Below are positions 960 to 12,069 of a stretch of DNA of 24,000 nt, piece after piece (the first letter of the stretch is position 1; every line of letters starts with the position of its first letter). Source of the stretch: Cyclonatronum proteinivorum (GTDB taxonomy: Bacteria > Bacteroidota > Rhodothermia > Balneolales > Cyclonatronaceae); assembly GCF_003353065.1 (NCBI RefSeq), contig NZ_CP027806.1, positions 754,997-778,996 on the forward strand, given 5' to 3'. The notes beneath the pieces are model-generated. The model was not told where the DNA came from, did no database searches, and saw nothing but the letters and a program-made list of their open reading frames with translations. A program made the position numbers and the translations under genes.

Positions 960-2605
960 AGCTGTTAGAAATCTGGATCATTTAGCTTGCTGTAGCTCAC
1001 CAAAGTCGTTCATTACGATCAATTCAATCCCCGTAAGACCTCTTCGAGCACCGTTTTTGCTCTTGTTTTGGCGCTACAATGCATACCAATGCCTCAATGC
1101 CTGCATGGGCTTTGTTTCACTTGCTGTTTTGCCGTCTGTTTTCTATCCCAAGCTGTATGCTGTGCTACCCGCGAGGTAAAAGTTTGAGCGCCATGACAGG
1201 CGCCGCCCAGCCGTGACCCTCAAAAATGCGGATGATGGTTTTGCGTGCATGTTGAACCAGCCGTCCCGCCATATACATCAGGTTCTGGATGACGGTGCGC
1301 AGCCGAAGCCGTTTGCTCCTGGCTTTTCGCCCCGGCACCAGACCTGTTTTTAGCATGCCTTGCCCCGCCAGTCGCAATAAATTAAAGGCTATCATGCTCA
1401 TATCCAGCACGTGCTGGTTGACCCTGAATTTACCCGAGGGGAGTCGCTCTACATCCATATCTGTCTTGAGTTCACTGTGGTACTGCTCGCTGGTACCCCG
1501 CTGCTTGTAGAACTCATGTATCTGCTCCGGGGTCCAGTCCAGGCTCGTCCAATACGCATCGACGGTGATCATAGCCGGAAACATATACTGCCCGTCCGTG
1601 CGGGCAAACCGCTTGGTAACCCGGAACACAATCCGGCAAGTCTTCGGATCATCAGGGGTGTCACTATGTCCGGGAATCTGTACTTGCTTTTGTCCGTACC
1701 ATGCCCGTGCGCCTATATCTACGTACTCGCCATCGGCTCCGCCGTTTTGCTTCACAGCCAGATCCAGCCACTCCTGCGGATCCTGATTGCGTAGGTTGCA
1801 CTTCACAACAAAATCAGTATCCTTCTGGCGCATAAATAACCTGACATTGACGCCACTATCGTTGCCCGAGTCGGTCACCACAAGCCGCTTGTGGCTGGTC
1901 ATACGCTCAGCCATATCCATGGTCTGCTTGAACCACGCATCGGTGCCGGGTGTGTTGCTGTGCGCCGAGCCGTTGCGCAGCTCGTTGTTTATCATCAAAC
2001 CATACGGACCGATGTAGCCAAGCATGGGCGCATAGCCTTCAAACTGTTTGTATGTCCAGTCTACGCCTTCTTTGTGGCTGTTGGAGTTATCCATGGGTGA
2101 GACATCACAGTGAATCACCGCCCAGGTCTGCCCGTGCAGATCTTCGGTCAGCAGGTGCGGATGAGCTGCCAGCAGGCGGGTGTTGAACTCACGAAAGACA
2201 TTATTCAATGACTCCGGGCATTGCTCAAGACGCTGGCGCAGGGTTTCCGGTGAGGGGGTCTTTTTTATTCCCAAGGCAGTGGCAAATACGGGATCGGCAC
2301 GATATTCAGCTATAGCGTCAAACTGAGGTTTACCGACCGACAACAGCCCAATCATGGCCTTAATGGTATCAAGGGTGGAAATATAATTCTTGTTGCGGGG
2401 CAGCGAACAAAGGCCATTGATGTCATTGGCCAGCACGGGATCATCAAGGGCCTGACCAATAAAAGCCAGACCTGCATGAGAGGTAATTGGTGTAGAGGTA
2501 AGCTCAAATTGTATTTTTGACATGCTCAAACGATTATATGAGGGTTCACCAGTTGGGTGAAAATACGCAGAATCGCTAAAGCTAGTAATACAAACGTTTT
2601 AGGCT
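960..2605 (-). mobile_element. IS1380-family insertion sequence; both ends approximate
   Basis: The size (about 1.65 kb) is as expected for this family. The right limit is inferred from where the recombinase reading frame and homology resume (frame opens at 2603, native-looking sequence from about RIKVYYKEYKP). I could not identify the terminal inverted repeats or target duplication by eye. Confidence 0.4.
1165..2529 (-). CDS. IS1380-family DDE transposase (454 aa)
   Basis: Intact 454-aa ORF. The N-terminus reads ...TSTPITSHAGLAFIGQALD..., and the length and overall pattern are typical of IS1380-family transposases. Several + strand ORFs overlapping it are antisense shadows. Confidence 0.85.
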   Translation of the reverse strand: MSMSKIQFELTSTPITSHAGLAFIGQALDDPVLANDINGLCSLPRNKNYISTLDTIKAMIGLLSVGKPQFDAIAEYRADPVFATALGIKKTPSPETLRQRLEQCPESLNNVFREFNTRLLAAHPHLLTEDLHGQTWAVIHCDVSPMDNSNSHKEGVDWTYKQFEGYAPMLGYIGPYGLMINNELRNGSAHSNTPGTDAWFKQTMDMAERMTSHKRLVVTDSGNDSGVNVRLFMRQKDTDFVVKCNLRNQDPQEWLDLAVKQNGGADGEYVDIGARAWYGQKQVQIPGHSDTPDDPKTCRIVFRVTKRFARTDGQYMFPAMITVDAYWTSLDWTPEQIHEFYKQRGTSEQYHSELKTDMDVERLPSGKFRVNQHVLDMSMIAFNLLRLAGQGMLKTGLVPGRKARSKRLRLRTVIQNLMYMAGRLVQHARKTIIRIFEGHGWAAPVMALKLLPRG

Positions 2606-2941
2606 ATGAATGGGCCGGATTGCTCACGGATTAAGGTGTACTATAAAGAATATAAGCCATCAGAATATCTGTTCGAAGGTCAATTTGGTGGTCAGTACTC
2701 AACCCGAAGCATACAAACCCTTTTCAAAAAGGCACTTCAAGCATGTGGGATAAAGAAAAAAGCAACGGTGCATACCTTGAGGCATTCGTATGCGACACAC
2801 CTTCTTGAAAATGGTACGGACCTGCGTATCATTCAGGAATTACTTGGTCATAAGAGTAGTAAAACAACGGAACTTTATACCCATGTGAGCCAACAAACAA
2901 AGCAAAGAATACCTAACCCTCTTGATCAACTGGAACTTTAA
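2603..2941 (+). pseudogene. Tyrosine recombinase (Xer-like / integrase family), C-terminal catalytic fragment only; 5' part removed by the IS1380/IS982 insertions
   Basis: The sequence ...YKEYKPSEYLFEGQFGGQYSTRSIQTLFKKALQACGIKKKATVHTLRHSYATHLLENGTDLRIIQELLGHKSSKTTELYTHVS...NPLDQL carries the HxLRH, LLGH and catalytic Y signature. Only about 110 aa are present, whereas full-length recombinases are more than 300 aa. No IntI-specific insertion is visible between the YLF block and HTLRH. Confidence 0.85.
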
Positions 2942-2945
2942 ATAA

Positions 2946-3022
2946 TGCGCAATAAATGTTCGCATATCACCCTATATTGGCATGTAAAGCGCATGTTTAT
3001 TGCGTGTATAAACGAGTTAGGC
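2946..3022 (+). other. Hairpin plus GTTAGGC box immediately after the recombinase stop; candidate attI-like junction (alternatively just a terminator hairpin)
   Basis: Imperfect inverted repeat: cgcaataaatgttcgc (2948-2963) pairs with gcgcatgtttattgcg (2989-3006), with 9 perfect bp plus an extension. GTTAGGC follows at 3016-3022. The sequence from 3016 onward is complementary to the R''-like box at 3195-3209. Confidence 0.4.
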
Positions 3023-3028
3023 ACAATA

Positions 3029-3187
3029 TTAATCTGTACTTTTAACATACCTATTCGGCAAACCATTTTTTCTATCAGATTCACCTTCTTTGTACTTCTT
3101 GTATTCATCTGAACCCTTTTTCACAAACCTCGACATTGGTTTACCTTCATAACCTCTCAAATATTGTATTGCAACTCTCTGTAACAT
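3029..3187 (-). CDS. Small Lys-rich hypothetical ORF (52 aa) inside the 312-bp cassette; may be non-coding
   Basis: My own translation is MLQRVAIQYLRGYEGKPMSRFVKKGSDEYKKYKEGESDRKNGLPNRYVKSTD. It is below the ORF-track length cutoff, lies opposite to the cassette direction, and shows no recognisable motif. Confidence 0.2.
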   Translation of the reverse strand: MLQRVAIQYLRGYEGKPMSRFVKKGSDEYKKYKEGESDRKNGLPNRYVKSTD

Positions 3188-3194
3188 AATCTAA

Positions 3195-3342
3195 AATACT
3201 GTGCCTAACAAGTGTTTTGCGTCAGGCGGGGTTGACCGCTCCGAATGAACATTTGTGCTATGTTGAAGTTTCGTTTTCATATCATCGTTTGTGCTAAAAA
3301 TCCCGCCCGAACGCAAAGCACTCGGACGTTACCACACATACT
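3195..3342 (+). repeat. attC-like element A: 132-bp imperfect palindrome (core 3203-3334), GCCTAAC ... GTTACCA
   Basis: The left arm gtg-t-tttgcgt-ca-ggcggg (3212-3230) pairs with the right arm cccgcc-cga-acgcaaa-g-cac (3302-3321). That gives 3+7+6 bp with one mismatch and a bulge. An AAC box sits 2 nt before the left arm and a GTT box 6 nt after the right arm. The loop contains tttgtgcta twice. Confidence 0.7.
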
Positions 3343-3435
3343 AAAAAGCTGACCCGCAAACAGCACATTTGGTTTTTCCGACACACAAGCCAACGCTGAA
3401 AAAACCAAAAGAGCCATTTTTTTCCATCGCTCGAC

Positions 3436-3470
3436 TTTGACATTAAGAAAATTGTTTTAAATTTGTCAAA
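3436..3470 (+). promoter_or_regulatory. Bacteroidetes-type promoter (TTTG, about 18 nt, TAAATTTG) overlapping a 7-bp inverted repeat TTTGACA / TGTCAAA; possible operator for the downstream HTH protein
   Basis: TTTG is at 3436-3439 and TAAATTTG at 3458-3465, which fits the TAnnTTTG -7 consensus. The ATG is at 3473, so the mRNA would be nearly leaderless. The inverted repeat is tttgaca (3436-3442) and tgtcaaa (3464-3470). Confidence 0.45.
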
Positions 3471-3472
3471 AA

Positions 3473-3814
3473 ATGACAAGTCTTATGAAAACCACATTTG
3501 GGGAGTATATCCGACTTTTAAGGACTGAAAAAGGGTTGACTTTAACTCAACTTGCTGCCAAACTCAATTTGGATTCGGCAAATTTGAGTAAAATCGAAAA
3601 CAATAAAAGAGATTTTGATGAAAAACGACTTTCTAAACTTTCAAAAATATTTGGGATAAGCTTGAAAGAAGTTCGTGAAGAATTTTTGACAGACCAACTC
3701 GGGAAAAAGATTTACGAAACGAATTGCACCAAAGAACTCTTAAAAGTGGCCGAAGAAAAGGCTGAATATCGCAGAACAATTAATAAAAACCTTCAAACCG
3801 AAAAAGCAATATGA
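3473..3814 (+). CDS. XRE-family helix-turn-helix transcriptional regulator (candidate controller protein of the R-M unit)
   Basis: FGEYIRLLRTEKGLTLTQLAAKLNLDSANLSKIENNKR is a classic HTH_3 motif. The stop overlaps the methyltransferase start (ATGA at 3811-3814). Confidence 0.85.
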   Translation: MTSLMKTTFGEYIRLLRTEKGLTLTQLAAKLNLDSANLSKIENNKRDFDEKRLSKLSKIFGISLKEVREEFLTDQLGKKIYETNCTKELLKVAEEKAEYRRTINKNLQTEKAI

Positions 3815-4602
3815 ATATAGTATCATTTTTTGCAGGAGCAGGCGGCCTTGATTTAGGGTTCCAAAAAGCAGGTTTTGATGTCATTTGGGCAAACGAATAT
3901 GACAAAGAAATTTGGGAAACTTATGAAAAAAATCACCCGCACACATTTCTAGACAAGAGAAGTATTGTAGATATTCCAGCAGACGAAGTTCCTGAATGTG
4001 ATGGAATTATTGGTGGTCCACCCTGCCAAAGTTGGAGTGAAGCAGGTTCAATGCGTGGAATAAATGATAAACGTGGTCAATTATTCTATGATTTTATCAG
4101 AATATTAGAAGCTAAACAGCCTAAATTTTTCCTTGCAGAAAATGTAAGCGGAATGCTTTTGGACAGACACAGTGAAGCACTTAAAAACATAAAAGAATTA
4201 TTTAAAAATGCAGGAGTTGGCTATGAATTATCTTTTCAAATGCTTAACGCCTCAGATTTTGATGTACCTCAAGATAGAAAGCGAGTTTTTTTTGTTGGTA
4301 TCCGTAAAGACTTGAATTTTAATTTTCAGTTTCCAAACCCATTAGATAAAAAAATAACGCTTCAACAAGCAATTTTCGATTTAAAAGAAAGTGTTGTTCC
4401 AGCAAAAGAAGGAAATAAAACGAATAAGGAAAATTGCAAAATTGCTAATCACGAATATATGATTGGTGGGTTTTCGTCAATGTTTATGTCTAGAAATAGA
4501 GTTAGGTCTTGGGACGAACAATCATTTACAATTCAAGCAGGTGGAAGACACGCACCGATTCATCCGCAAGCACCTAAAATGAAATTTAATATAGCAGCAT
4601 AA
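3811..4602 (+). CDS. DNA (cytosine-5) methyltransferase, M.HaeIII-like, C-terminally truncated (motifs I-VIII and most of the target-recognition region present, motifs IX and X absent)
   Basis: Motif I is FFAGAGGLDLGF, motif IV is GGPPCQSWS, motif VI is LAENV, and motif VIII is QDRKRVFFVG. It is near-colinear with M.HaeIII as I remember it, up to ...SFTIQAGGRHAPIHPQAPKM, then ends KFNIAA-stop. No RE..R.QGFPD or GNAVP motif occurs in any frame nearby. Confidence 0.85.
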   Translation: MNIVSFFAGAGGLDLGFQKAGFDVIWANEYDKEIWETYEKNHPHTFLDKRSIVDIPADEVPECDGIIGGPPCQSWSEAGSMRGINDKRGQLFYDFIRILEAKQPKFFLAENVSGMLLDRHSEALKNIKELFKNAGVGYELSFQMLNASDFDVPQDRKRVFFVGIRKDLNFNFQFPNPLDKKITLQQAIFDLKESVVPAKEGNKTNKENCKIANHEYMIGGFSSMFMSRNRVRSWDEQSFTIQAGGRHAPIHPQAPKMKFNIAA

Positions 4603-4835
4603 TGGAAATGATAAAATTTGAAGGAAAAGAATATCCAACATTACTATTAAATTTCCCTTTTGGGGAAAGACAAATTAGTACCGAAAAATTGAATGATAAT
4701 TTGATGAATGTTGATGGGAGTTATGTTTCTGAAAACGCAAGATTAATTGACGAAAGTATATTTTATTTTGTGGATGAAGAAAATTTGAAACTTGATGAAG
4801 CTGAACTTACTCAACTAATTTTATCAGAAATATGA
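4602..4835 (+). CDS. Hypothetical small, highly acidic protein (77 aa)
   Basis: The start overlaps the methyltransferase stop (TAATG) and the stop overlaps the next start (ATGA). I counted 17 D/E against 6 K/R. No motif recognised. Confidence 0.6.
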   Translation: MEMIKFEGKEYPTLLLNFPFGERQISTEKLNDNLMNVDGSYVSENARLIDESIFYFVDEENLKLDEAELTQLILSEI

Positions 4836-5338
4836 TTCAATATCAGTTTTTCCCGCGTTCTCAAGGAATTACGCCTGAAATAAGAAAAGTAATTGATTGC
4901 TTTACACAAGTAAGTGATAAAATTGACTCTGATACAAAGAACCTAAAGAGTAATGAAGTTCTTCAACATTTATATCAACCACTTTCTGAAATTGGTTATG
5001 CGGTAGAAACAAGTAAAGCTAAAGATGATAAAATTGATGTGCCTGTACTTTTTGGATTAGATAATAGAATTGATAAAAGTTATAATGCTGATGCATTAAG
5101 CCAAGATGGAAAAATAGTTATTGAAGTTGAAGCAGGTAGAGCTACTGAAAACAATCAGTATATGAAAGATATTTTCCAGGCTTGTATGATGTTTGAAGTT
5201 GAATATTTAGTTGTAGCAGTAAGAAATACGTATCGTGGACATAAGGATTTTGAAATTGTATTTACCTTTTTAGAAACTCTATATATTTCAAGTCGATTGC
5301 ACTTGCCATTGAAAGGTATATTATTAGTAGGGTACTAA
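4832..5338 (+). CDS. Hypothetical protein, possible PD-(D/E)XK nuclease of BamHI/BglII-like type (168 aa)
   Basis: ...YNADALSQDGKIVIEVEAGRATENNQYMKDIFQACMMFEVEYLVVAV... shows a D-x(n)-E-x-E block followed by a hydrophobic strand, reminiscent of BamHI/BglII-type cores. The assignment rests on motif resemblance only. Confidence 0.55.
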   Translation: MIQYQFFPRSQGITPEIRKVIDCFTQVSDKIDSDTKNLKSNEVLQHLYQPLSEIGYAVETSKAKDDKIDVPVLFGLDNRIDKSYNADALSQDGKIVIEVEAGRATENNQYMKDIFQACMMFEVEYLVVAVRNTYRGHKDFEIVFTFLETLYISSRLHLPLKGILLVGY

Positions 5339-5393
5339 TGCGTGAGGGATAGAAGTGGAAAGCCCACAGCGAGGAACGAGCGAGGACTTGTAA

Positions 5394-6377
5394 CGGATAG
5401 CCCGACCCTTAGGGGCACGCCCAACTCAAACAATAAATGGGAAAGCGTTTGAATATGCTTTACTTTTTGAATTTTATGAACGTTTAAAGACAATAACAAG
5501 TGTTTCAATTGCTGAAAATGAACCATTTCAAAATGCAAAAGGCTGTTTTGATAGTTTTATTGAAGATGAACAAGACACTTTTAGAATTACGGCAAGTGCG
5601 GCTATAAATTTCTTAATTGATATTGAGCCAAGATTGTCAAATGGTATTAGTAAAGAAGATATTTTAGTTCTTGAAATCGTGAGTGACCAGGCAGGACAAA
5701 CAGGAGATGTTCGTGATGTACTTATAATTCGTTCTTTACAAAAATGGGAAATTGGAATTTCCGCCAAAAACAATCATAGAGCTGTAAAACATTCAAGATT
5801 ATCGTTAAACATTGACTTTGGAGAGAAATGGTTAGGAGTTCCTTGCTCACAAAATTATTTTGATGAAATCAAGCCGATTTTTGATATGTTGGGGAATCTT
5901 AAAGCTTCAGACAAATCAACAAAATGGACTTCGATTGAGAATATGCATCAAGTCGTTTACATTCCAATTTTAAACGCTTTTCGAAAAGAACTCTTACGGC
6001 TTGACAAAGAAAACCCCAATATTGTTGCCGAGAACCTTGTTCAATATTTAATAGGAAATGAAGATTTTTACAAGGTAATCAAAGGAAATAAAAAAGTAGA
6101 AATTCAAGCCTACAATTTAAGCGGAACTTTGAATTTACAATTTGAGAACGTAAAGCCTAAAGCTAGAATACCTAAATTGAAATTACCATCAAGACTAATC
6201 GAAATAGTTTACCAAGACAATTCGACAACGACTTTATTGGTTTCGTTAAATGAAGGTTGGCAAATCTCGTTTAGAATTCATAATGCAAGTTCAAGAGTAG
6301 AACCGTCATTGAAATTTGATATAAATCTTGTAAGTGCACCTCATACATTATTCACAAATCACATTTTTATAGCATAA
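5394..6377 (+). pseudogene. Putative cognate type II restriction endonuclease (HaeIII-like by context) lacking a usable start codon for the full-length frame
   Basis: The frame opens after TAA at 5391-5393 and reads ...TQTINGKAFEYALLFEFYERLKTITSVSIAENEPFQNAKGCFDSF... continuously into the track ORF 5634-6377. There is no in-frame ATG, GTG or TTG before the TTG at 5634. A possible catalytic block is GDVRDVLIIRSLQKWEIGISAK. The family assignment is inferred from the adjacent M.HaeIII-like gene. Confidence 0.55.
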
Positions 6378-6487
6378 TGCCAACGTAAAAAGCCATAAAC
6401 ATTGGCAAGTCGCACCAGCCGACACACAAGCCAAAACTTGCCAAAGAGTATGGCTTAGCCAACGCTGACAAACCTGAGCGAATAAGA

Positions 6488-7064: not shown

Positions 7065-8540
7065 ATGAGCGATGAATTAGCAATTCCCGGAACACGGATA
7101 TTAAATGGTTTTTTCGGAACAGGCGAAGTTGCCGGCTTATCTGAAAACAAAGTATATATTCAATTTGACATTAAACGGAAGGCTACATTCACAGATCTAA
7201 GAATTGCTTTCAGAAAGGAGTTCGCATTTACAGATGTTGAACAAAAGCTGGCAGAAAGTCAATACACAGAGGTTCCGCTCGAAATCACAGACGATCGTAA
7301 CATCCATAAACTATGGGAATATATAGACGATAACTCAGGTATAAGCAATAATTCAACTGGTAATTCTGAAAGCTTCATCAAAAACGAATTGGATTGGATA
7401 TGCAACCTGCGAAGCACTAAGCCCATTTTACATCCGTGGCGTTATAGAAAATCAGACCAGTTGTTATGTGAACTCGTAAACAGAACCGTTTATTATTATA
7501 GTTCACACTATAAAATTGCGTTAAGAACTGAATATTCCTATGCAGATAAAAAGTTCAGGTTGAGACGTATAACTCCGGGTTTGGGCAAGGAATTGGAAGG
7601 GTTCTGTATTATGGGGACACCTTTGTACGGAATATCAAATAGCAGCAAGTCAGATGGTTTTTGGGTGATTAAGCATCATGGCGCCCCAATCACTGTTTTC
7701 GATCCCTTTTTTTCATATTCAAAATATATCTTAAAGCCCAACAAACCATTTCAATTTAAAATACTGGCCATAGCATTTGGCTGTTCCTATTCAGATTCCT
7801 CAAGTTTGATTGAGACGTACCTGGAAAAAGAGAACCACGAAATAAACACGTATTCTTTTTTGGGGAAGGTGAATGAGGTCAAAAACTATACGAGCAGTAA
7901 TATTGCAGAAAAACGATATTGCCATTCATTTTTAGAAATCAAAAACACAGGATTTGGGGCACAACATTTTATAGAAATAATGTTACCTGTCTTTTTTGAT
8001 AAAAGGTGTCCACGAGAAGGGGATTGGGTGAAAGGAAAATTATTCTTTGTTGGATTTCCTTCTCAAGCTGTTGATTGGTATGATGGTTGTGTAGTGTTAC
8101 CACGACAGTTCAATAAATTTCCCAAGTATAAACTTTGGAGAGGTTATTGCAAAAGCCTTGCACAGCAAGCTGTATCTATGTGTGATCATCTGGCAGAGCT
8201 TTGTTACCAAAACGACATAAAGGGATGTCGCATCAATATTTTGGAAAAGTATTATACCCCGGATCACTTCAATTATTCTCACAATGACAGGAACTTAAGT
8301 ATTATTCAATATTTATTTCGTTCGCTAATCAATAATTTAAAAAATGAACCATTAGAATTAGAACTTGCGGAGGTTGTGCTAAAGTTTGATTTCAAAAATC
8401 ACAATAGAGAAACTTCCTGTGTAGCTATTGCAACTGCTTTAATTAAAGATGTTAATGGGAAGGAAATTACATCAACCCACAAGCATGATTTGATATTGAA
8501 AGAACACCCTGAAACTAAAAATGTAAGAGACAAATTTTAA
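7065..8540 (+). CDS. Hypothetical protein (491 aa), orphan; the N-terminal 45 aa or so resemble a small SH3/Tudor-like beta domain
   Basis: Long intact AT-rich ORF followed by a strong terminator. The N-terminus GTRILNGFFGTGEVAGLSENKVYIQFD resembles the G..V.H..FG.G.V....V.F pattern of the UvrD/PcrA C-terminal domain. The rest is rich in aromatic residues and Cys, with no motif I recognise. Confidence 0.7.
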   Translation: MSDELAIPGTRILNGFFGTGEVAGLSENKVYIQFDIKRKATFTDLRIAFRKEFAFTDVEQKLAESQYTEVPLEITDDRNIHKLWEYIDDNSGISNNSTGNSESFIKNELDWICNLRSTKPILHPWRYRKSDQLLCELVNRTVYYYSSHYKIALRTEYSYADKKFRLRRITPGLGKELEGFCIMGTPLYGISNSSKSDGFWVIKHHGAPITVFDPFFSYSKYILKPNKPFQFKILAIAFGCSYSDSSSLIETYLEKENHEINTYSFLGKVNEVKNYTSSNIAEKRYCHSFLEIKNTGFGAQHFIEIMLPVFFDKRCPREGDWVKGKLFFVGFPSQAVDWYDGCVVLPRQFNKFPKYKLWRGYCKSLAQQAVSMCDHLAELCYQNDIKGCRINILEKYYTPDHFNYSHNDRNLSIIQYLFRSLINNLKNEPLELELAEVVLKFDFKNHNRETSCVAIATALIKDVNGKEITSTHKHDLILKEHPETKNVRDKF

Positions 8541-8649
8541 TTTCAATATATTTATGACTTGCCAAAAGAGTAAATAGCCATCATTGAAAACCTTTAATCA
8601 AAAAATAGGTCACTTGAAATATTATTATGTCATCTCAAAACTTACTCTT

Positions 8650-8680
8650 AAAAAGCGTCCCCCGGGGCGCTTTTTTTTTG
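8650..8680. terminator. Rho-independent terminator, potentially bidirectional
   Basis: In aaaaaGCGtCCCCcGGGGCGCttttttttt the GC stem is flanked by an A-run and a T-run. It lies between the convergent 491-aa gene and the reverse-strand remnants. Confidence 0.8.
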
Positions 8681-8717
8681 CCCAAAAATCCCCCAACCCG
8701 CATCAAAAAAAATCGGG

Positions 8718-8963
8718 TCAAGTACATTTCTTGGGGAGAACTCGATAATCAAGCAAAAAGTTTTTTGAGTTGGGTTCGCAAAAACCTTTAGATTCCCATT
8801 CATCGGGGGCATAACCAGGGGGAAGCTGATTCTTCTCCACCAGATAGGTGTGTAATGTTGAAGCGATAGCGCTACCCTCTATCCGGGCCTGCTCAAAACG
8901 CTCAATTTCAAACCGGTCCAGCAAACCAGCCGGTTAAAACAAGTGCATCAATTCTTTTTCCAT
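8718..8963 (-). pseudogene. Hypothetical small gene interrupted by an in-frame TAA
   Basis: The reverse frame reads ATG(8963) MEKELMHLF, then TAA(8936-8934), then PAGLLDRFEIERFEQARIEGSAIASTLHTYLVEKNQLPPGYAPDEWESKGF... The track ORF 8718-8924 is the downstream part. Function unknown. Confidence 0.3.
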
Positions 8964-9163: not shown

Positions 9164-9462
9164 CTAATTATCTTTATTCGGATCATCCGGCAGCTGTTGC
9201 CGAACGTGCCAAATCGTGAGCATATCAATCTGAAGGGGCTTTATTTCATAAACTAACCGATAATTTCCGTGTATGATTTCTCTGATTTCAGGTCTTCGGA
9301 ACTCGGGTACCATTCTGCCCGATTGTGGTGCGCAGCCAATTGCTGGCAAAGTTCAAAGGCACCCTGTGCCCATTTTACGGCGGCCTGAATATCATCCGCT
9401 GCAATGTAGTCGGTGCACGCTTCAACCCGATCCAAAAACCGTTCGGTAAAATTAGCTTCACT
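9164..9462 (-). pseudogene. parE: ParE/RelE-family toxin gene with two frameshifts
   Basis: The GTG start overlaps the antitoxin stop (GTGA). It reads VKLI, then shifts frame into FTERFLDRVEACTDYIAADDIQAAVKWAQGAFELCQQLAAH, then shifts again into PQSGRMVPEFRRPEIREIIHGNYRLVYEIKPLQIDMLTIWHVRQ. Joined together these match the ParE pattern (...YIA.D...AA......L...P..GR.VPE....IRE...G.YR..Y......I.I..V.H..). The track shows it as two overlapping 60-61 aa ORFs. Confidence 0.75.
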
Positions 9463-9718
9463 TTTTCAGGTGATTTTCAATACGTGCTTTGGCTTCGTCC
9501 ATGGTGTATGTTATCCCTTGTTCGACCTGTTGTTTTGCTTCGAGCAGGTCCTCAAGCAGCGCCAGCTTTTTTGAGATGCGCTCAAATTCGCCTATGTCCA
9601 TCAGCACCGCTGCCCCCTTGCCATGTTGCGTAAGTATGATCGGCTGTTTGTCTTTCTTCAGGCGTTTGATGAAATCAGCGGATTTCTTCCGAAACTCAGA
9701 AACCGGTTCAATATCCAT
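9458..9718 (-). CDS. Phd/YefM-family antitoxin (86 aa)
   Basis: MDIEPVSEFRKKSADFIKRLKKDKQPIILTQHGKGAAVLMDIGEFERISKKLALLEDLLEAKQQVEQG... is a typical Phd/YefM N-terminal fold sequence. I prefer the ATG at 9718 to the track start at 9781. Confidence 0.8.
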   Translation of the reverse strand: MDIEPVSEFRKKSADFIKRLKKDKQPIILTQHGKGAAVLMDIGEFERISKKLALLEDLLEAKQQVEQGITYTMDEAKARIENHLKK

Positions 9719-10185
9719 TGCAGTACATTTAAAATATTTTTTGTGTACTGGAAAGGAACTAAACAAGGCTCGCACACACAACTGAAGACGGTCTGCTGCA
9801 GCACATCCTAACTTTGCAAGCGAATGAACCCGATTTCAGGCCGTTTGGCTCATTCAGCCGTCTTTCTTTTTTGGGGGAACCCCTTGCACATCACTGGGTT
9901 TCATGCTTGTGAAAAATCCCAAACCGGCGGTGCACCCCGTGCTTTTTGAGGTTAGCGCTCCCTGTCAAAGTCTCGCAGCGGGGCTTTCAGAAGTACTGCT
10001 GAACTATGGGAGATTCGGTTTGTGAACAGGAAACATGAAATAAGCTACGACTTTTGGTAATGTACTCTGAGCCATTACAAAATCCCACAAAAAAACCGCC
10101 CGTTTTTTTGAAGTCGGTTTCGTCCATGCTACCTTCCTTTAAATCCATCCACCTCACCATTCCATAAATCAATCCCACCAATACC

Positions 10186-11478: not shown

Positions 11479-11602
11479 AGGCTAAGTTTTCTGTACTGTT
11501 AGGTGATGAAACGCTCTGAGGCCGGAGGTGGAGGTCAGCTCGTGCATAATATAGATAAAGTAAGGCTGCGCAGCTTTATGGTTTTTGTTGAAGAGAAAAA
11601 TT

Positions 11603-11961
11603 GAGACTGCCTGTAAGCCGAATTCTGTGCCCTTATGGAATAAGGGTGGTAATCATTTATCTGGGATGCCGGTCACCCGGCACCTCAAGCGGCCTACCCG
11701 GCAGCATAGCAACCGGTGGTGCATACTGCCTGCTTGGCCTTGCACCCCGTGAGGTTTACCCTGCCGCTTTAGTCGCCTAAAGCGCGGTGGGCTCTTACCC
11801 CACCATTTCACCCTTACCCCGGCAAGCCGGGGCGGTATATTTTCTGTGGCACTGTCTGTATCCGCCATGAGGCGGACCCTTCCTGTTAGGAAGCACGGAA
11901 CCGGTAGGTGTTCGGACTTTCCTCCTTCTGAACAAGCAAAAGGCGATTACCCGGCAGCCTC
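11603..11961 (-). ncRNA. rnpB: RNase P RNA, bacterial type A
   Basis: The reverse strand reads GAGGCUGCC...GGAGGAAAGUCCGAAC...ACAGAAAAUAUACCGCC...GGUAAGGGUGAAAUGGUGGGGUAAGAGCCCACC...GGGUAAACC...AGAUAAAUGAUUACC...ACAGAAUUCGGCUUACAGGCAGUCUC. P1 pairing joins the 5' GAGGCUGCC and the 3' GGCAGUCUC. The track ORF 11653-11868 lies inside this RNA and is spurious. Confidence 0.95.
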
Positions 11962-12069
11962 AATAAACAGCAAAAAATAAAGAACGCTAATGTTTTCAGG
12001 ATGGCTTCAGCAAAGCGAGCAGTTGCGCAATAAATGTGCTGTAGCTCGTGAGCGTTTCAAGATAAGGAC

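Follow-up and report, generated by a model that had tools for sequence, protein, structure and literature searches.

A 24,000-nt stretch of the Cyclonatronum proteinivorum genome (assembly GCF_003353065.1, contig NZ_CP027806.1, positions 754,997-778,996, forward strand), referred to here as the window, carries two small coupled genes within a restriction-modification (R-M) operon of GGCC specificity. The genes encode an acidic protein of 77 amino acids (aa), S77, and a nuclease-like protein of 168 aa, X168. We interpret the pair as a mobile cassette of restriction-enzyme origin that resides in GGCC R-M operons and encodes a nuclease with its inhibitor, in toxin–antitoxin-like fashion, and we give this interpretation about an even chance. 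The evidence that carries it is the fold of X168, the conservation of its putative catalytic residues, the regular pairing of the two genes, the boundaries of the cassette, purifying selection on both genes, and the contrast with distant relatives of the nuclease. Positions 4588–5428 constitute one discrete cassette with four parts:

4588-4604 (+): left-end motif AATATAGCAGCATAATG, with the consensus AAWGCWGCATAA (GCWGCATAA) plus ATG, which recurs beside different upstream sequences.
4602-4835 (+): S77, 77 aa, acidic, the 'type A' small partner of X168.
4832-5338 (+): X168, 168 aa, a PD-(D/E)XK nuclease with a BamHI/OkrAI-type fold, assigned from an AlphaFold2 model, a Foldseek search and conserved residues.
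5339-5428 (+): a GC-rich, structured copy of the Flavo-1 RNA motif (RF01705), 90 nt, which forms the 3' end of the cassette and terminates in …ACGCCCAA.

The AlphaFold2 model of X168, obtained with an alignment of 50 sequences, has a predicted local distance difference test score (pLDDT) of 95.7 and a predicted template modelling score (pTM) of 0.91. In a Foldseek search of the Protein Data Bank (PDB), OkrAI (3odh) ranked at the top (probability 0.99, TMq 0.54), ahead of several BamHI entries, and restriction enzymes of the OkrAI and BamHI type are the sole convincing structural neighbours. The segment DALSQDGKIVIEVEAGRA occupies residues 87–104. E100 is the same in all 50 sequences, which reach down to 34% identity, and at least 90% of them keep D87, E98 and D113. 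Nearly all of roughly 100 representatives, including ones only about 35% identical, share a longer block, D-A…(I/L)E(V/I)EAGR…N-x-QFLKD. D87, E98, E100 and K112/D113 are the putative catalytic residues, assigned by sequence conservation. Because of the fold match and the residue conservation, X168 can be described as a conserved BamHI/OkrAI-type PD-(D/E)XK protein with the residues expected of an active nuclease. We infer that it cuts DNA in vivo, and the same applies to its target.

X168 belongs to a large family. Relatives with E <= 0.001 number 3267 and fall into 750 clusters at the 50% identity level; the best 120 of the 3267 are 69–100% identical and come from Bacteroidota, Acinetobacter and other groups. 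A phage search returned no relatives, and a plasmid search returned one 46% relative without useful annotation. The ratio of nonsynonymous to synonymous substitution rates (dN/dS) of X168 is 0.03–0.17. With this number of relatives, this degree of constraint and a pLDDT above 95, the open reading frame (ORF) is not a product of chance. Nothing significant was found for X168 in Pfam, NCBIfam or PADLOC, and no PDB chain or curated restriction-enzyme family (Pfam RE_BamHI and similar) was matched by sequence. The sole Pfam signal was a sub-threshold one to AHJR-like (E = 0.16), and four further family members were also without matches in the family searches.

S77 contains 17 acidic (D/E) and 6 basic (K/R) residues, and its ORF overlaps that of X168 at 4832–4835 (ATGA). 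The AlphaFold2 model (pLDDT 96.2) consists of three strands and helices. The dN/dS of S77 is 0.2–0.6, above that of X168, and this ratio, with a pLDDT above 95, establishes that the S77 ORF is not a chance one either. Of 77 genome loci, about 44 have an S77 homologue immediately upstream of the nuclease gene, with overlapping stop and start codons; the Prevotella loci have it immediately downstream. Reverse look-ups were made from two S77 homologues, one of them from a gut bacterium (> 100 contigs), and a 168-aa gene adjoins both. S77 has no Pfam, NCBIfam or PADLOC match. The preliminary description of this DNA had called the 77-aa product strongly acidic, had noted that its stop overlaps the start of a 168-aa ORF containing a nuclease-like D...ExE arrangement, and had recognised neither protein as a member of a named family. 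These statements are borne out by the residue count, the ATGA overlap, the restriction-endonuclease-like model with its conserved acidic residues, and the empty family searches for both proteins. A derivation of S77 from the lost C-terminus of a methyltransferase was considered and rejected; there is a short resemblance (KF…EGKE…), yet the predicted beta-sheet and helices are unlike motifs IX and X.

The association of the nuclease with a small ORF is a consistent feature of the clade to which X168 belongs, defined here as relatives at least 59% identical to X168 and comprising thousands of members in many phyla. In a census of 70 usable loci of this clade, a small acidic ORF adjoins the nuclease gene in 58, and about 5 more loci have a less acidic S77 homologue in this place (~63/70). 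The preliminary description had proposed co-occurrence in other genomes as a check on the pair, and a nuclease gene with an adjoining S77 homologue or other small acidic ORF is indeed found in dozens of unrelated genomes. Nearly always the small ORF is tightly coupled to the nuclease gene, and in most loci it is acidic. The partners form at least six families that have no BLAST similarity to one another and whose representatives are all net acidic. S77 is the commonest type, type B carries the motif …NWIEEIEF…, and types C to F also exist. They are placed upstream of the nuclease gene, with overlaps of the ATGA or TAATG type, or at most 14 nt downstream of it. To judge from these sequences, the small partner is interchangeable.

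A different picture emerges from distant relatives, which were sampled as 80 metagenome loci with nucleases 43–55% identical to X168. No credible adjacent small acidic ORF was found in these 80 loci, with at most one spurious case. A C5 methyltransferase ORF, in most cases full length, lies beside or near the nuclease gene in 13 of them, a Vsr gene is close by in 5, and many have no methyltransferase in view. Judged from the informative neighbourhoods, the background of the family appears to be that of the restriction subunit in type II systems producing 5-methylcytosine (m5C). The small partner, as far as these comparisons of loci go, is a speciality of the highly conserved and widespread window clade.

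These neighbourhoods bear on a simpler explanation, in which X168 would be a conventional type II restriction endonuclease whose sites are protected by GGCC (m5C) methylation or by a further methyltransferase encoded elsewhere. The small ORF would then regulate expression or timing, through translational coupling or a delay of restriction, instead of encoding an inhibitor. The frequent proximity of the distant relatives to C5 methyltransferase and Vsr genes speaks for it, as does the fact that the clade is tied only to methyltransferase genes of the M.HaeIII/NgoPII-like kind, in two unrelated operon types. Some nucleases are solitary, and in one locus (L039) an intact gene for a 566-aa C5 methyltransferase lies immediately downstream of S77–X168. 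Three further loci, discussed below, combine the cassette with methyltransferase pieces and an R.HaeIII gene that are intact and under purifying selection. GGCC is also depleted in the carrying loci (observed/expected 0.59, the second lowest after CTAG), a weak observation from carrying loci alone with no control set, which was set aside as a clue to specificity. This explanation is countered by the small ORF itself, which encodes a folded and conserved protein. It is also countered by the diversity of the partners, which represent at least six acidic families with no relation to one another and may lie to either side of the nuclease gene, so that interchangeable binding partners fit better than a leader ORF. 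Moreover, the adjoining HaeIII-like methyltransferase gene is truncated or startless in every clade locus examined where this could be judged, and many clade loci have no R-M remnant at all. We consider an ordinary restriction enzyme unlikely.

The inhibitor interpretation draws on how the genes are arranged, on a partner that evolves faster than the nuclease, on the unrelated acidic partners on either side of the nuclease, and on the absence of a partner where some relatives have a methyltransferase. S77 and X168 are encoded by small neighbouring genes in one orientation, coupled through the ATGA overlap and conserved as a pair, as is characteristic of toxin–antitoxin-type modules. S77 would bind and restrain X168. 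The preliminary description had likened the pair to a toxin/immunity or nuclease/inhibitor module, and most of its interpretation is supported.

The boundaries of the cassette are defined at both ends. The left motif AAWGCWGCATAA precedes the ATG of the small ORF and supplies the last codons (…AA, stop) of any upstream gene. It adjoins the methyltransferase gene at residues ~176, ~186, ~259 and ~268, and it adjoins R.NgoPII in two loci (L035 and L057). At the other end, DNA homology between loci stops exactly at the nuclease stop codon or about 90 nt beyond it. Both ends are common to type A cassettes in HaeIII-type (C–M–R–Vsr) operons and type B cassettes in NgoPII-type (R–M) operons, where C, M and R denote the controller, methyltransferase and restriction endonuclease genes. 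The GC-rich 90 nt that follow the gene pair therefore belong to the cassette.

These 90 nt match the full Flavo-1 model of Rfam with 34.4 bits (E = 6.9e-06), below the gathering score of 42. Homologous elements in six related loci (L019, L020, L027, L038, L043 and L045) reach 56.6–62.7 bits and pass the gathering score, so the window copy is a diverged member of the same motif. An element is found directly 3' of the nuclease gene in all six of these loci and in L035 and L057. We built a covariance model from 13 copies of the element and ran it on 1 Mb of loci, and 17 of its 20 hits lie directly 3' of the nuclease gene. Compensatory changes are seen in 4 of 15 predicted pairs. The central hairpin varies between subtypes, with a compensatory change at its base, and in the window copy it is replaced; this replacement and the sub-threshold score distinguish the window copy from typical Flavo-1. 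The motif (Weinberg et al. 2010, PMC2864571) is reported to have no consistent context. It is widespread, has an unknown function and occurs in either orientation relative to transcripts (PMC9723704). No link to a nuclease gene was found in this Flavo-1 literature (PMC2864571, PMC9723704).

A parallel to Flavo-1 in Bacteroidota is seen in Acidobacteria. In seven loci (L040, L062, L063, L064, L068, L081 and L165), the nuclease gene is directly followed, at about +570 from its start, by the gene of a Y1 transposase of IS200-like type (RAYT-like, PF01797) along with a REP-like hairpin.

In the window, the cassette is embedded in a HaeIII-type operon with the following remaining parts:

3473-3814 (+): controller-type helix-turn-helix (HTH) protein, 113 aa (Pfam HTH_3, E = 4.5e-13), at the head of the HaeIII-type R-M operon.
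3811-4602 (+): remnant of an M.HaeIII-like C5 cytosine methyltransferase, 263 aa (Pfam DNA_methylase, E = 1e-73).
5439-6377 (+): frame of a HaeIII-type restriction endonuclease (Pfam RE_HaeIII, E = 2.1e-104, profile positions 1–298 of 298).

Homologues of the HTH protein are found at the equivalent position in L002, L006, L007, L032 and L077, and this side is the probable promoter side of the cassette. The methyltransferase ORF covers positions 1–255 of the 324 in the DNA_methylase profile, and with M.HaeIII as the tblastn query, residues 1–254 align to it. Since the profile match stops at 255, the remnant is without motifs IX and X; it retains motifs I–VIII and the greater part of the target-recognition region. 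The left end of the cassette contributes the final codons of the remnant (…IAA, stop), and the stop overlaps the ATG of the 77-aa ORF (TAATG). The endonuclease frame contains no ATG, GTG or TTG from the preceding stop up to a TTG at 5634, and this first start-type codon lies about 74 codons inside the frame (5340–5660 translated). The R-M unit of the window is thus dead at both genes, because the methyltransferase is without motifs IX and X and the endonuclease is without a start codon. S77–X168 probably depends on the C/M promoter for its transcription, with translation coupled to that of the methyltransferase remnant. The G+C content is 29–36% across positions 2600–6400, against 45–55% around them.

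The position and the integrity of the cassette agree with two further claims of the preliminary description. The first was that the pair sits where the methyltransferase 3' end and the endonuclease 5' end are missing; this is what the truncated methyltransferase profile and the startless endonuclease show, even though the latter matches its full profile. The second was that the pair arrived as a unit, which receives support from the same ends in different operon types and from a comparison of the window with locus L006. The two have identical junctions, and they are 93–98% identical within 4560–5440 and about 82% identical in the flanks. The synonymous divergence (dS) is 0.29–0.35 in the cassette and 0.7–1.3 in the C, M and R flanks. 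The contrast is reversed in other pairs. In L035 versus L057 and in L045 versus L043, the flanks are 83–94% identical, and the small ORF with the 5' half of the nuclease gene only 66–83%; for L035 versus L057, the identity from -200 to +250 of the nuclease start is 66–73%. Some other pairs show no difference between cassette and flanks. Because the contrast reverses between pairs, the cassette and its flanks have separate histories. The small ORF and the N-terminal half of the nuclease tend to be transferred jointly. Their joint exchange between L035 and L057 is counted here as a toxin–antitoxin-like feature.

The insertion points are numerous. About 14 left junctions were found, with M ending near residue 10, 32, 42, 76, 102, 119, 130, 142, 176, 186, 188, 259 or 268, and right junctions lie at M141, M220, R5, R43–69, R153, R174, R244, R275 or in unrelated DNA. 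Copies at other sites include one in Burkholderiaceae (L048, 8001-8507), in which the nuclease gene stands alone between hisH and hisA, its ATG overlapping the hisH stop. In Acinetobacter (L003, 5665-6513) the nuclease gene also lies between hisH and hisA, accompanied by a type B small ORF and by 38 aa left over from a methyltransferase. The carriers include Pedobacter psychrophilus CCM 8644 (L045) and Flavobacterium filum DSM 17961 (L053).

Such a distribution can be examined for signs of homing. X168 could cleave cassette-free GGCC operons or nearby DNA, and repair templated by a copy with the cassette would then spread it, with the small protein acting as a cofactor or protecting the carrier. 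PD-(D/E)XK homing endonucleases are an established class. The identical junctions and low cassette dS of the window and L006 are what homing would produce, and discordant cassette and flank histories are present in the other pairs too. The two operon types share only the methyltransferase family and the GGCC specificity, and the flanking gene fragments have low dN/dS, as if they had been functional until recently. The junctions themselves tell another story, since their number on both sides leaves no single home site, and the deleted regions do not overlap between loci, so that no common target is removed. The insertion destroys the host gene rather than preserving it, and many copies lie outside R-M remnants, as between hisH and hisA. 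Gene conversion from cassette to cassette accounts equally well for the identity profile. Homing thus appears improbable, somewhat more so than an ordinary restriction enzyme.

The state of the host methyltransferase raises another explanation. An intact cognate methyltransferase gene beside the endonuclease gene is absent in the window and in all examined clade loci with a HaeIII-like M. X168 could be a methylation-dependent (type IV-like) enzyme that cuts GGm5CC. The cassette would replace GGCC methylation in the style of DpnI and DpnII, and the small protein would restrain the enzyme while the old methylation is diluted. A precedent exists in Streptococcus pneumoniae, in which the DpnI cassette replaces the DpnII cassette. 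The inactivation of the neighbouring GGCC methyltransferase in every judgeable clade locus fits this explanation, and so does the supplanting of R-M genes of one specificity in two operon types. It is difficult to reconcile with the distant relatives, which adjoin intact C5 methyltransferases, and with the intact C5 methyltransferase directly downstream in L039. In L020, L027 and L045 R.HaeIII appears to be intact, and such an enzyme would kill a cell that has no GGCC methylation; moreover, the closest fold is that of enzymes cutting unmethylated sites. We regard methylation dependence as very improbable, the least probable of the alternatives considered here.

The nuclease–inhibitor interpretation can be put as a sequence of steps. 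X168 comes from a family whose distant members often adjoin C5 methyltransferases, in the manner of an m5C type II restriction subunit. A small partner would be made from a shared transcript just before or just after the nuclease, and S77–X168 would act as a toxin–antitoxin or nuclease–immunity module, with the partner in the role of the methyltransferase. In GGCC operons of the HaeIII and NgoPII types, the cassette takes the place of the M–R junction or of part of M, and it would pass between GGCC operons by recombination. We infer the mechanism by which new junctions form. The window would represent an outcome of this process, in which the cassette genes are intact and under purifying selection and the host R-M unit is dead. 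A bolder version seems possible to us but doubtful. In this version, a restriction-endonuclease lineage gave up its methyltransferase, came to be ruled by interchangeable small acidic inhibitors, and travels as a Flavo-1-ended cassette that overwrites GGCC M–R junctions. It would be a parasite or a successor of R-M systems, intermediate between R-M and toxin–antitoxin systems.

Several observations weigh against an inhibitor role of the small protein or against a plain toxin–antitoxin model. For the S77 fold, neither the PDB nor BFVD contains a match, and it resembles no known inhibitor. The S77 homologues in L016, L019, L028, L063 and L068 are not acidic, which weakens the simple picture of a DNA mimic. 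In 6–7 of the 70 loci there is no recognisable small partner, and the partnerless nucleases of L008, L041, L048, L056, L059 and L060 are intact and keep the catalytic motif. The nuclease is therefore not always lethal alone, or the cell is protected otherwise. Nor would a plain toxin–antitoxin model lead one to expect the constant tie to GGCC methyltransferase genes. Finally, three loci (L020 at 7240-8950, L027 and L045) hint at a cassette inside a working R-M system. In these loci the cassette is flanked by two intact methyltransferase ORFs, one of 176 aa and one of 138 aa, with residues 173–221 gone. The 176-aa piece has motifs I–VIII, the 138-aa piece has the recognition loops and motifs IX–X, and an intact R.HaeIII gene follows. 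The dN/dS of the pieces and of R.HaeIII is 0.03–0.12 at a dS of ~0.8 or more. It is possible that the pieces were functional until recently and that the cassette came by recombination. By analogy with M.AquI, they may alternatively form a working split methyltransferase. A simple insertion that leaves a complete methyltransferase in two parts was rejected, as about 50 residues (173–221) are gone in these loci and L033 has lost about 10; this rejection leaves the low dN/dS of the pieces unaccounted for.

The nuclease–inhibitor pair can be compared with several known systems. X168 resembles the type IIP enzymes OkrAI and BamHI in its fold, in its compactness (168 aa versus 194 aa for OkrAI), in a D…E-x-E acidic triad as in BamHI, and in the methyltransferase linkage of its distant relatives. 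It differs in having no sequence match to Pfam restriction families or to a PDB chain and in the modest structural similarity (TM 0.54), and the X168 clade, including the window, has a small acidic partner gene instead of an intact cognate methyltransferase gene. With type II toxin–antitoxin, colicin DNase–Im, barnase–barstar and Tox-REase–Imm pairs, it shares two small genes that overlap at stop and start and that encode a nuclease and a small, mostly acidic protein. As in such pairs, the evolution of the small protein outpaces that of the nuclease, and the small protein is swappable between unrelated families and may stand on either side of the nuclease. In contrast to them, X168 and S77 match no known toxin, antitoxin, immunity or defence family, S77 is without the DNA-binding domain typical of antitoxins, several nucleases of the X168 clade are solitary, and toxicity and neutralisation are presumed.

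DpnI and DpnII of Streptococcus pneumoniae are alternative cassettes, each of which can be exchanged through shared flanks, and a nuclease is encoded together with a small protein of unknown role. S77–X168 is similarly a two-gene cassette in the place of an R-M cassette of a single specificity, with recombination in shared flanks. Unlike in the Dpn system, the replacement is partial, there are many junctions, the carriers belong to many phyla, and no sign of methylation dependence of X168 was seen. Free-standing homing endonuclease genes can split host genes, as mobE does in the nrdA gene of Aeromonas phage, and M.AquI is naturally split. The X168 gene likewise lies inside a conserved host gene and is more similar than its flanks in the window and L006, and the 176- and 138-aa ORFs of L020, L027 and L045 are divided in a variable region near the M.AquI split. 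The many insertion points, the loss of about 50 M residues even in these split loci, and the absence of the C-terminal part of M in the window set the cassette apart from both.

Other classes of element were considered and rejected. A Vsr-like repair nuclease does not fit, as a true Vsr gene already ends HaeIII-type operons and X168 resembles dimeric restriction enzymes. The cassette ends are unlike the RYYYAAC and GTTRRRY of integron gene cassettes with attC, and the 3' element is Flavo-1. A group I or group II intron or a self-cleaving ribozyme was dismissed, as only about 15 nt are non-coding on the 5' side and Rfam yields Flavo-1 only. An element of the IS200/IS605 type was also dismissed; X168 is not an HUH transposase, and a Y1 transposase adjoins the cassette only in Acidobacteria.

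The kinds of components are known, namely a restriction fold and a toxin–antitoxin-like organisation. Their combination, the interchangeable partners and the existence of a cassette with defined ends in place of the core of GGCC R-M operons are new, and no description of the S77–X168 pair was found in the literature searched. If the small proteins inhibit the nuclease, a natural restriction enzyme would be checked by a protein instead of by DNA methylation, which would link R-M with toxin–antitoxin systems, and several unrelated protein inhibitors of the type II restriction fold would exist. The cassette illustrates the invasion and dismantling of R-M operons, and the orphan Flavo-1 motif gains a reproducible genomic context. 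Two uncharacterised protein families are defined, one of which has thousands of members in Bacteroidota, Acidobacteriota, Proteobacteria, Spirochaetota and other groups. The system is tractable, since both genes are small and two carriers are cultured type strains.

The window has other features around the R-M island. Just upstream of this low-GC island, a block of 52–55% G+C contains a 454-aa ORF (1165-2529, -) that looks transposase-like by eye. It abuts a C-terminal tyrosine recombinase fragment (2606-2941, +; Pfam Phage_integrase, positions 80–171 of 172). Directly after the island is a 491-aa ORF without a Pfam match (7065-8540, +). Two adjacent small ORFs (9164-9435, - and 9458-9781, -) resemble, by eye, a toxin of the ParE/RelE type and an antitoxin of the Phd/YefM type. 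Positions 11598-11962 (-) encode a bacterial RNase P RNA of class A, with a full-length match of 287.6 bits.

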